This document shows positions 38,138 to 39,904 of a stretch of 64,000 bases of DNA, in pieces. Within the stretch, counting starts at the first letter, position 1. The number at the start of each line of letters is the position of its first letter. The position numbers and the translations under genes are program-made. Under the pieces are notes generated by a model. The model was given only the letters and a program-made list of their open reading frames with translations. It searched no databases and was not told where the DNA came from. The DNA is from Arenicellales bacterium (GTDB taxonomy: Bacteria > Pseudomonadota > Gammaproteobacteria > Arenicellales > JAANXG01): positions 16,242 through 80,241 of the forward strand of contig JBAUWJ010000190.1 of the NCBI GenBank assembly GCA_049583715.1, written 5' to 3'.

Positions 38138-39904
38138 ATGAGCTACGAGCACGTCAAGATTCCCGAAAGCGGTGAAAGGATCACCATCGACAACGGCAGG
38201 ATCACGGTTCCGGACAACCCGATAGTGGGATTCGTCGAAGGCGACGGCATCGGGCCCGACATCACTGCGGCTTCCATGCGGGTCTGGGACGCCGCCGTCG
38301 AGAAGGCCTATGGAGGAAAGCGTAAGATCCACTGGTGCGAGCTGTATCTCGGCGAGAAGGCCGCATCCATTTACAACGGGGAGTACTTCCCCGCCGAGAC
38401 GCTGGATGCCATCAAAGAGCTCGTGGTGGCGATCAAGGGACCCTTGACCACTCCGGTAGGCGAGGGCTTTCGCTCATTGAACGTATCGCTGCGGCAGGAC
38501 CTCGACCTGTACGCCTGCGTCAGGCCGGTGCGCTACTACCAGGGCGTGCCGTCGCCGATGCGCAACCCCGGCCAGGTGGACGTGGTGGTTTTCCGGGAGA
38601 ACACGGAGGATGTCTATGCCGGCATCGAGTACGAGAGCGGCACGCCGGAGAACAAGAAGCTCGCGAGATTTCTGAGGGAGGAGCTGGGCGCGCGGTTCTT
38701 CGAGGACGCCGGCCTCGGCGTCAAGCCGATCAGCCCGTTCGGCTCGAAGCGCCTGGTGCGCAAGGCGATCCAGTTCGCCGTGGACCAGAAGCGCGAAAGC
38801 GTCACCCTGGTGCACAAGGGCAACATCATGAAGTACACCGAGGGCTCTTTCCGCAAGTGGGGCTACGAGGTCGCCAAGGAGGAGTTCGCGGACAGGGTCA
38901 TCACCGAGGAGGAGCTGTACAACGAATACGGAGGCAAGCAGCCGGAGGACAAGATCGTCGTCAAGGACCGCATCGCCGATATCATCTTCCAGCTCCTCCA
39001 GCTCCGGCCGAGCGAGTTCGATGTGCTGGCGACCATGAATCTCAACGGCGACTACCTGTCGGACGCGGTTGCCGCGGAGGTGGGGGGCATAGGTATCGCG
39101 CCGGGCGCCAACATCGGCGACCACGCGGCGGTCTTCGAGGCCACCCACGGCACCGCCCCCAAGTACGCGAACCAGAACAAGGTCAATCCCAGCTCGCTGC
39201 TCCTTTCGGGTGTGATGATGCTCGAGTATATGGGGTGGAAGGAAGCGGCAGACCTGATCAACGCCGCCTATCCCAAGGTGATCGGAGACAAGTTCGTTAC
39301 GTATGACTTCGCCCGCCAGATGAGCGGCGCCCACACCGTCTCCACCAGCACTTTCGCCGACGCCCTGGTCGCCAAGATCACCGGCAATGCCGGAGACCTG
39401 GGCCGCTTCGAGCGCGACCGCCGGGATGCCCTGGAAGCCGAGCGCAGAGAGCGGGAGGCCCGGCGCATCGAGGATCCTCGTCAGGCCATGCGCGAGTCCG
39501 GGCATCAGCCGTCCACCGCCGGCGCCATCATGTCGGCGGTGCAGAGGGTGTCCGCGACCACCAGCGTGGAGGACGCAATGCACAAGATGCGTGAAGCGGA
39601 TGTCAGCTATCTGCTGGTGGAGCCGGCCGGAGACGAAGGCTGGGGGATCATGACCAAGCGCGATGTGATCATCAAGATCGTCGGCGCCAACAAGTCGACC
39701 CAAAAGAGCACGGTCGAGGAGATCGCCAGCCGGCCGCTGATCACCGCACCGTCCGACGCGTCGCTGCGAGAGGTGTCTCTCCTTCTCAGCGAGAACAGTA
39801 TCCGGCGGGTCGTCATCGAGGACCACGACACCCCGGTCGGCGTCGTCTCCGACACCGACCTTTTCGACATCGTCGAGGAGTTCGGCTGGGAGACGGAGGA
39901 GTAG
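38138..39904 (+). CDS. icd: NADP-isocitrate dehydrogenase fused to a C-terminal CBS-pair domain
   Basis: Track ORF 37346..39904 trimmed to ATG 38138 (SD ACGGAG). Residues up to about 418 form a complete homodimeric-type IDH ([51 protein letters not shown]). A charged linker follows ([24 protein letters not shown]). About 125 aa of CBS-type sequence then follow ([24 protein letters not shown]...GIMTKRDVI...[28 protein letters not shown]...VGVVSDTDL). The whole is one open frame with no intervening stop. Confidence 0.93.

Follow-up and report, generated by a model that had tools for sequence, protein, structure and literature searches.

Isocitrate dehydrogenase (IDH) stands where energy-yielding oxidation parts from carbon-conserving routes. 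To our knowledge, the control of the bacterial enzyme consists of phosphorylation by AceK and of inhibition by products or metabolites. CBS domains, which take their name from cystathionine beta-synthase, form pairs (Bateman modules) that regulate inosine monophosphate dehydrogenase (IMPDH), guanosine monophosphate (GMP) reductase, CBS-pyrophosphatase (CBS-PPase) and cystathionine beta-synthase via adenosyl ligands. In the last of these, the Bateman module exerts an auto-inhibition that is lifted by S-adenosylmethionine. CBS-CP12 (structure 5nmu) binds adenosine monophosphate (AMP) specifically, forms hexamers with or without AMP and relays the AMP signal to a metabolic enzyme (PMC6142219). 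Here, we analyze a gene that joins an IDH of the type using nicotinamide adenine dinucleotide phosphate (NADP) to a C-terminal CBS pair. It is part of a 64,000-nucleotide (nt) stretch from an Arenicellales bacterium (assembly GCA_049583715.1, contig JBAUWJ010000190.1, positions 16,242 to 80,241 of the forward strand), referred to in the following as the window.

Results

Reading frame and public records

A first-pass annotation of the window had read the IDH as running without a stop into a CBS region. The DNA bears this out, i.e., one uninterrupted open reading frame (ORF) for 588 amino acids (aa) spans positions 38138-39904 (+), with 0 internal stops and 0 frameshifts across its 588 codons. 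The N-terminus of the protein, MSYEHVKIP, aligns with that of Pseudomonas aeruginosa ICD (5m2e) from residue 1. The window gene is confirmed as one real gene joining NADP-IDH to a C-terminal CBS pair.

This assignment has to be weighed against an artefact, a concern already raised in the first-pass annotation with regard to a frameshift or assembly error around the linker. In that case, an error in sequencing or assembly would have merged an icd gene with an adjacent CBS-pair gene, and the 124-aa gene called by NCBI would be correct. NCBI indeed holds separate 124-aa CBS proteins for the genome of the window (MGA8261088.1) and for that of a second locus, L006 (MDJ0958692.1). The former, named "CBS domain-containing protein", is 100% identical to aa 465-588 of the window product (nt 39530-39904); the 588-aa product has no entry in the protein collection searched. 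On the other hand, the window shows neither stop nor frameshift at this place, and the DNA of L006 likewise holds a continuous 588-aa ORF in spite of the same split annotation. Furthermore, M465, with which the 124-aa protein starts, belongs to the CBS consensus and has no Shine-Dalgarno (SD) sequence in front of it. As many as 48 independent full-length genes show the continuous frame, among them those of isolate RefSeq proteins of 587 and 588 aa, the linker of about 45 aa is conserved and under purifying selection (see below), and no close stand-alone CBS homologue was found beyond fragments of fusions. The 48 continuous independent genes together with the purifying selection on the linker rule out an assembly or frameshift artefact, whose probability we consider practically nil. 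The fusion is thus real, and the split annotation probably arose when the pipeline ended the IDH at its usual C-terminus and then called the rest from the internal methionine.

The two isolate proteins are listed in RefSeq and UniProt as "isocitrate dehydrogenase (NADP(+))", both for Plasticicumulans acidivorans (WP_110018279.1 / A0A317MWW8, 587 aa) and for P. lactativorans (WP_132540761.1 / A0A4V2SD25, 588 aa). That is, database entries either give no sign of the CBS module in their IDH name or list the CBS part as a protein of its own. Within the literature searched, which left most subscription journals uncovered, we found no description or characterization of an IDH-CBS fusion. The earlier statement that no such fusion had been described therefore holds for this literature but not for the databases, as the architecture is already present in RefSeq/UniProt and in many metagenome-assembled genomes (MAGs), labelled as IDH. 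What is new here is the combination of a known enzyme with a known regulatory module for which we found no published characterization; the sequences are already public.

Spread, selection and origin

We searched for homologues among 5.8 billion proteins and examined the best 120 matches. All of them are 568-592 aa long, combine PF00180 with PF00571 and show 68-89% identity. In addition, we scanned one genome per GTDB species (185,579) on the basis of an alignment of the C-terminal 191 aa. At least 54 GTDB species carry linker and CBS pair downstream of IDH, and the IDH motif NLNGDY shares a single stop-to-stop frame with the C-terminal EEFGW. With about 54 of 185,579 species, a lower bound given that just two peptide patterns were scanned, the IDH-CBS fusion is rare among GTDB species. 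Full-length fused genes number 48 (47 GTDB loci plus the window), with lengths of 587-596 aa, and form the basis of the conservation values given below for 48 species.

The fusion is conserved within a single gammaproteobacterial branch. Carriers are MAGs labelled Arenicellales, Acidiferrobacterales, Ca. Muproteobacteria, Ca. Competibacteraceae and Nevskiales, in addition to two cultured strains, P. acidivorans DSM 23606 and P. lactativorans DSM 25287. Three loci (L011, L016 and L055) were binned as Nitrospiraceae, Nitrospira and Thermodesulfobacteriota; they encode an IDH-CBS of the gammaproteobacterial type with 59-79% identity in the C-terminal region, which suggests binning contamination or horizontal transfer.

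Nei-Gojobori comparisons of the window gene with five relatives give ratios of nonsynonymous to synonymous substitution rates (dN/dS) that range from 0.03-0.09 in the IDH domain to 0.06-0.22 in the linker and 0.07-0.34 in the CBS pair. Thus, the linker and CBS extension is selected coding sequence, and both of its parts are under purifying selection.

To trace the origin of the fusion, we considered the best 150 HMMER matches among 1.84 billion representatives at 50% identity clustering. At this level of clustering, the 150 matches include a single full-length fusion (P0149, 589 aa) besides one fragment, and no second, independent IDH-CBS fusion origin was seen among them. A neighbor-joining tree of IDH domains groups the 49 fused sequences in one clade, inside which 0 of 52 non-fused representatives fall. 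The identity to the IDH domain of the window shows a corresponding gap, i.e., it is at least 72% for fused and at most 63% for non-fused sequences. Monophyly and identity gap together show a single evolutionary origin, i.e., the fusion arose on one occasion and was retained. A search with aa 416-588 for a stand-alone donor of the CBS pair returned fusion fragments and distant CBS proteins of about 31% identity.

The same set of representatives contains other long IDH homologues. P0153 (776 aa) combines Iso_dh with a subsequent complete lactate/malate dehydrogenase (Ldh_1_N plus Ldh_1_C); it would place two enzymes of the tricarboxylic acid (TCA) cycle in one polypeptide and may be either a conserved fusion or a read-through artefact. 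P0275 (580 aa), P0166 (664 aa) and P0280 (542 aa) carry an extra 130-250 residues without Pfam match.

IDH domain

The first-pass annotation had seen a complete NADP-IDH of the homodimeric type, and profile and alignment data agree. TIGR00183 (prok_nadp_idh, NCBIfam) matches aa 3-414 with 649 bits (cutoff 567.3) and covers profile positions 2-416 of 417, while Pfam Iso_dh matches aa 30-409 (E 1.3e-87). The domain can be aligned over its full length to 5m2e and to Escherichia coli 1ai2 (E 1e-159 to 1e-163), and IDH chains of the PDB match aa 1-414 only. All IDH motifs quoted in the first-pass annotation were found in the protein.

Residues S113, N115, R119, R129, R153, Y160, K230, D283, D307 and D311 of the E. 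coli enzyme are all identical in the window protein (HMMER alignment to 1ai2), with S113, R119, R129, R153, Y160, D305 and D309 in the numbering of the latter. Substrate, metal and catalytic residues are also invariant in our alignment A1. K342, Y343, V349, Y389 and R393 of the window protein align to K344, Y345, V351, Y391 and R395 of E. coli IDH, which we take to be the determinants of NADP specificity that bind the 2'-phosphate. On these grounds, the enzyme should be active, NADP-specific and of the homodimer type. The serine context GFRSLNV, in contrast, does not mark an AceK target as had been proposed, since the context of Ser113 serves substrate binding and is shared by IDHs at large.

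The last IDH helix starts at the residues matching E. coli Tyr391 and Arg395, and the extension begins directly after this helix. When IDH residues specific to the fused clade were inspected as a docking surface, 10 scattered positions without a clear patch were obtained.

Linker and CBS pair

No Pfam family matches the linker (aa 415-460). AlphaFold2 (AF2) places an E/R-rich helix of 28 residues at 418-445 and a short helix at 447-454, with a kink at P447. R443, P447, G455 and P458 do not vary over the 48 species, and conservation is at least 96% for R428, E440 and M451, all of them standing among variable charged residues. Such a pattern suggests a semi-rigid spacer with specific contacts. 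The charged segment pointed out in the first-pass annotation is present (aa 423-446), but its position is 39404-39475 rather than 39403-39471.

The linker is followed by the CBS pair (aa 461-582, nt 39518-39883). The two CBS motifs initially noticed behind the linker are well supported by Pfam CBS, for which two stretches reach 62 bits compared to a gathering score of 24 (E 6.9e-17). An AF2 model of aa 398-588 shows an overall predicted local distance difference test score (pLDDT) of 82 and about 90 within the CBS pair. It has the twofold beta-alpha-beta-beta-alpha fold, and Foldseek relates it to solved CBS pairs with probability 1.0 and E values of 1e-11 to 1e-9. CBS-CP12 (5nmu) ranks first, ahead of PH0107, ST2348, Rv2626c and AcuB with AMP, adenosine di- or triphosphate (ADP, ATP) and diadenosine tetraphosphate (Ap4A); target-normalized TM-scores are 0.76-0.83 for 2yzi, 2ef7, 1xkf, 2rc3 and 2p9m. 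A profile search finds its closest relatives at E 1e-18 to 1e-22, with MJ1225 and Rv2626c among the matches.

CBS domains bind ribose-phosphate via the motif G-h-h-[ST]-x-x-[DN]. In CBS1, W502, I504, T506 and D509 are invariant over the 48 species, and G503 and R508 are conserved to 98% and 92%, respectively. At least one canonical ribose-phosphate site is thus predicted, namely that of CBS1. In CBS2, the invariant residues are R557 and G568, and R556, P566 and S571 reach 98%. The motif VEEFGW (aa 579-584) at the end of the protein is 96-100% conserved and may be a docking surface. Coordinates of all features are compiled in Table 1.

Table 1. Features of the IDH-CBS gene (positions within the window).
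Feature	Position	Strand	Evidence and remarks
IDH-linker-CBS gene, whole	38138..39904	+	588 codons plus TAG stop (39902-39904); single ORF from ATG 38138
Shine-Dalgarno-like GGAG	38128..38131	+	6 nt before ATG; read from sequence
Type-I homodimeric NADP-isocitrate dehydrogenase domain, aa 1-414	38138..39379	+	TIGR00183, Pfam Iso_dh, alignment to 5m2e and 1ai2
Charged linker, aa 415-460	39380..39517	+	AF2 secondary structure; no Pfam match
CBS domain 1, aa 461-522, with W502-G-I-M-T506-x-R508-D509 ribose-phosphate motif	39518..39703	+	Pfam CBS, AF2
CBS domain 2, aa 523-582, with R556-R557 and G568-V-V-S571-D-T-D574 motif	39704..39883	+	best Pfam CBS stretch aa 526-579
C-terminal motif V579-E-E-F-G-W584, end of last CBS helix	39872..39889	+	96-100% conserved, 48 species

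Proposed regulation of the fused enzyme

Given the domain analysis, we see an even chance of allosteric control of the IDH dimer by the Bateman module, with an adenosine-type ligand (probably an adenine nucleotide) bound at the CBS1 site. In such a mechanism, the C-terminal IDH helix would run into the semi-rigid charged helical linker of about 45 residues and on into the Bateman module. The module would bind an adenosine-containing ligand, with AMP, ADP or ATP as first choice, most likely in the cleft that holds the G-I-M-T-x-R-D motif of CBS1. Binding would shift or pair the two Bateman modules of the dimer and thereby change IDH activity via the linker. The extension could influence NADP binding or domain closure; it seems well placed for an effect on the cofactor, since the last IDH helix carries the equivalents of the Tyr and Arg that bind the 2'-phosphate. 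As a consequence, a small-molecule signal would act directly on the flux through the isocitrate branch point. We put adenine nucleotides first because a basic residue stands beside the Thr and Asp of the conserved site and because CBS-CP12 is AMP-specific.

The CBS pair might also sense another ligand, i.e., S-adenosylmethionine, reduced nicotinamide adenine dinucleotides (NAD(P)H), Ap4A, the guanosine alarmones (p)ppGpp or cyclic di-AMP (c-di-AMP), and would then couple IDH to methylation, redox state or stress. All of these are established ligands of CBS pairs, and the AcuB structures include Ap4A. Moreover, the acidic CBS2 motif S571-D/E-T/N-x suits a phosphate-free ligand better than a nucleotide phosphate. 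The conserved site T506-x-R508-D509, in contrast, has the basic residue expected for phosphate binding, and the best structural match is AMP-specific (PMC6142219). Within the CBS pair, no sequence signature discriminates between the candidate ligands. Taken together, a ligand of this second kind is conceivable but rather unlikely.

Finally, the CBS pair could play a mainly structural role independent of any ligand, namely drive the formation of tetramers or filaments or dock another protein. CBS pairs usually dimerize, CBS-CP12 is hexameric regardless of AMP (PMC6142219), VEEFGW and the invariant linker residues resemble protein-protein contact surfaces, and the long E/R-rich helix resembles a spacer. 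However, the CBS1 ribose-phosphate motif, conserved over 48 species, is hard to explain without a ligand, and IDH is already a stable homodimer, such that we regard a mainly structural function as improbable.

Control by an adenine nucleotide thus remains our preferred reading, and a number of observations weigh against it. The ribose-binding Asp of CBS2, D574, is retained in 71% of the 48 species, such that at most one canonical ribose-phosphate site is assured. The identity of the CBS pair to ligand-characterized CBS pairs is just 22-30%, and for Rv2626c, which is among its closest relatives, we know of no ligand. The full-length AF2 model has a mean pLDDT of 64.6 with a poor IDH core and does not give the domain geometry; it was not used for this purpose because a shallow alignment left the IDH core at low confidence. 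Nor do the gene neighborhoods provide a functional hint, i.e., no neighbor common to both synteny groups (see below) was found, and an isocitrate lyase gene is located within 10 kb in 1 of 54 loci (signature scan plus tblastn).

One step further, the fused Bateman module may act as an adenylate-gated valve on NADP-IDH that takes over the job done by AceK in enterobacteria, i.e., the partitioning between TCA cycle, glyoxylate shunt and storage. Direct energy-charge control, possibly in place of AceK, had been suggested in the first-pass annotation and is a reasonable hypothesis. We consider the valve, as an extension of the preferred reading, doubtful.

Gene neighborhood

In the window, the IDH-CBS gene has a DUF255/thioredoxin-like gene upstream and folK, a PfkB-family kinase gene and gcvH downstream. 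Further neighbors are lgt, a 5'-3' exonuclease gene, ppsR-ppsA, Fur, UbiH-like monooxygenases and pepP, and the window also holds a 2-oxoacid:ferredoxin oxidoreductase, a sulfite/nitrite reductase and hrpA. This gene order is common to close relatives only. In Competibacteraceae and Plasticicumulans, the order is LysR-type regulator, IDH-CBS and lutABC. We therefore discarded the neighborhood as a clue to function: in the window it consists of housekeeping genes, and the two synteny groups have nothing in common.

ORFs that read as lutA, lutB and lutC (lactate utilization) follow almost directly 3' of the IDH-CBS stop in Competibacteraceae and Plasticicumulans (L023, L027, L032, L034, L035, L041, L046, L047, L049, L052 and L053), and co-transcription of IDH-CBS with lutABC is possible. 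A divergent gene that reads as a LysR-type regulator precedes the fusion in 12 loci, which partly overlap this set.

The first-pass annotation had taken korAB and ppsA as neighbors hinting at an unusual central metabolism. This is not supported, as the distance to IDH-CBS is 11 kb for korAB and 8.5 kb for ppsA, with housekeeping genes around them. ppsA (27314-29683, +) occurs in 4 related loci, 3 of which are close relatives of the window, and shows no linkage to IDH-CBS across species; it adjoins a divergent gene for PpsR of the Kinase-PPPase family (26151-27287, -), a standard pairing with no special link to IDH. The korAB-like genes (51075-53914, -) are outside the 10-kb flanks compared between loci and encode a two-subunit 2-oxoacid:ferredoxin oxidoreductase (POR/POR_N/PFOR_II and a beta subunit with TPP_enzyme_C).

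The only locus with isocitrate lyase is L020 (positions 10470-12749), from a MAG labelled Betaproteobacteria (ZH-3nov15-228). Here, IDH-CBS precedes an ORF judged RraA/aldolase-like by eye and, 0.9 kb downstream of IDH-CBS, an isocitrate lyase of 425 aa with the signature KKCGHM. A link to the glyoxylate shunt via the neighborhood was dismissed as too anecdotal given this single case. Among the about 30 window ORFs scanned with Pfam, neither an AceK-like nor an isocitrate lyase gene was found, and the window holds no second IDH or CBS gene. At 7724-9616 (-), a 631-aa ORF fuses a eukaryote-type Ser/Thr protein kinase domain to Sel1 repeats.

Discussion

If the preferred reading is true, a covalently attached ligand sensor constitutes a third, self-contained mode of bacterial IDH control. 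It would parallel IMPDH, CBS-PPase and cystathionine beta-synthase, and would be a convergent counterpart of the adenylate control known from the mitochondrial NAD-dependent IDH (IDH3). The adenylate valve, if true as well, would be a previously unrecognized allosteric mechanism built into bacterial IDH. The clade includes feast-famine accumulators of storage polymers (Plasticicumulans, Competibacteraceae) as well as Arenicellales and Acidiferrobacterales from sediment. With carriers among the organisms of polyhydroxyalkanoate (PHA) production and wastewater, the control of TCA flux is of practical interest. Furthermore, the idea is directly testable because the gene is present in two strains available in culture, DSM 23606 and DSM 25287.

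Comparison with known systems

With regard to the catalytic domain, E. coli Icd (1ai2/3icd) and P. aeruginosa ICD (5m2e) match the window protein over the full length, including active-site and NADP-specificity residues. They end at the equivalent of I414, however, where the window protein adds 174 aa of linker and CBS pair, and the known regulation of these enzymes is the phosphorylation of Ser113 by AceK and not a fused sensor.

With regard to the CBS pair, the closest relatives of aa 461-582 are CBS-CP12 (5nmu), Rv2626c/Hrp1 (1xkf), MJ1225 (3kh5), PH0107 (2yzi) and AcuB (9s4v-9s52). Such stand-alone CBS-pair proteins are separate polypeptides or fused to other modules, none of them to IDH, and share 22-30% identity with the window pair.

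IMPDH, GMP reductase and CBS-PPase are likewise metabolic enzymes and are tuned by adenine or guanine nucleotides or Ap4A at the Bateman module. The IMPDH structures 2cu0 and 1vrd are weak profile matches to the CBS pair. In these enzymes, the CBS domains are inserted within the catalytic domain and act via rearrangement of octamers or tetramers, whereas the window protein carries a C-terminal appendage on a predicted dimer.

IDH3 is a functional analogue of the proposed mechanism, since its activity is set by adenylate status (ADP, ATP and citrate). It differs in its cofactor and in that the control lies with paralogous regulatory subunits of a hetero-oligomer instead of a CBS module.

The best architectural analogy is provided by eukaryotic cystathionine beta-synthase, which shows the same layout, i.e., a dimeric catalytic core, a linker and a C-terminal Bateman module. 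Its catalytic fold is that of an unrelated enzyme dependent on pyridoxal phosphate (PLP) and the similarity of the CBS pairs is weak (6z3s, E 8.5e-4), while the linker of the window protein is a long charged helix.

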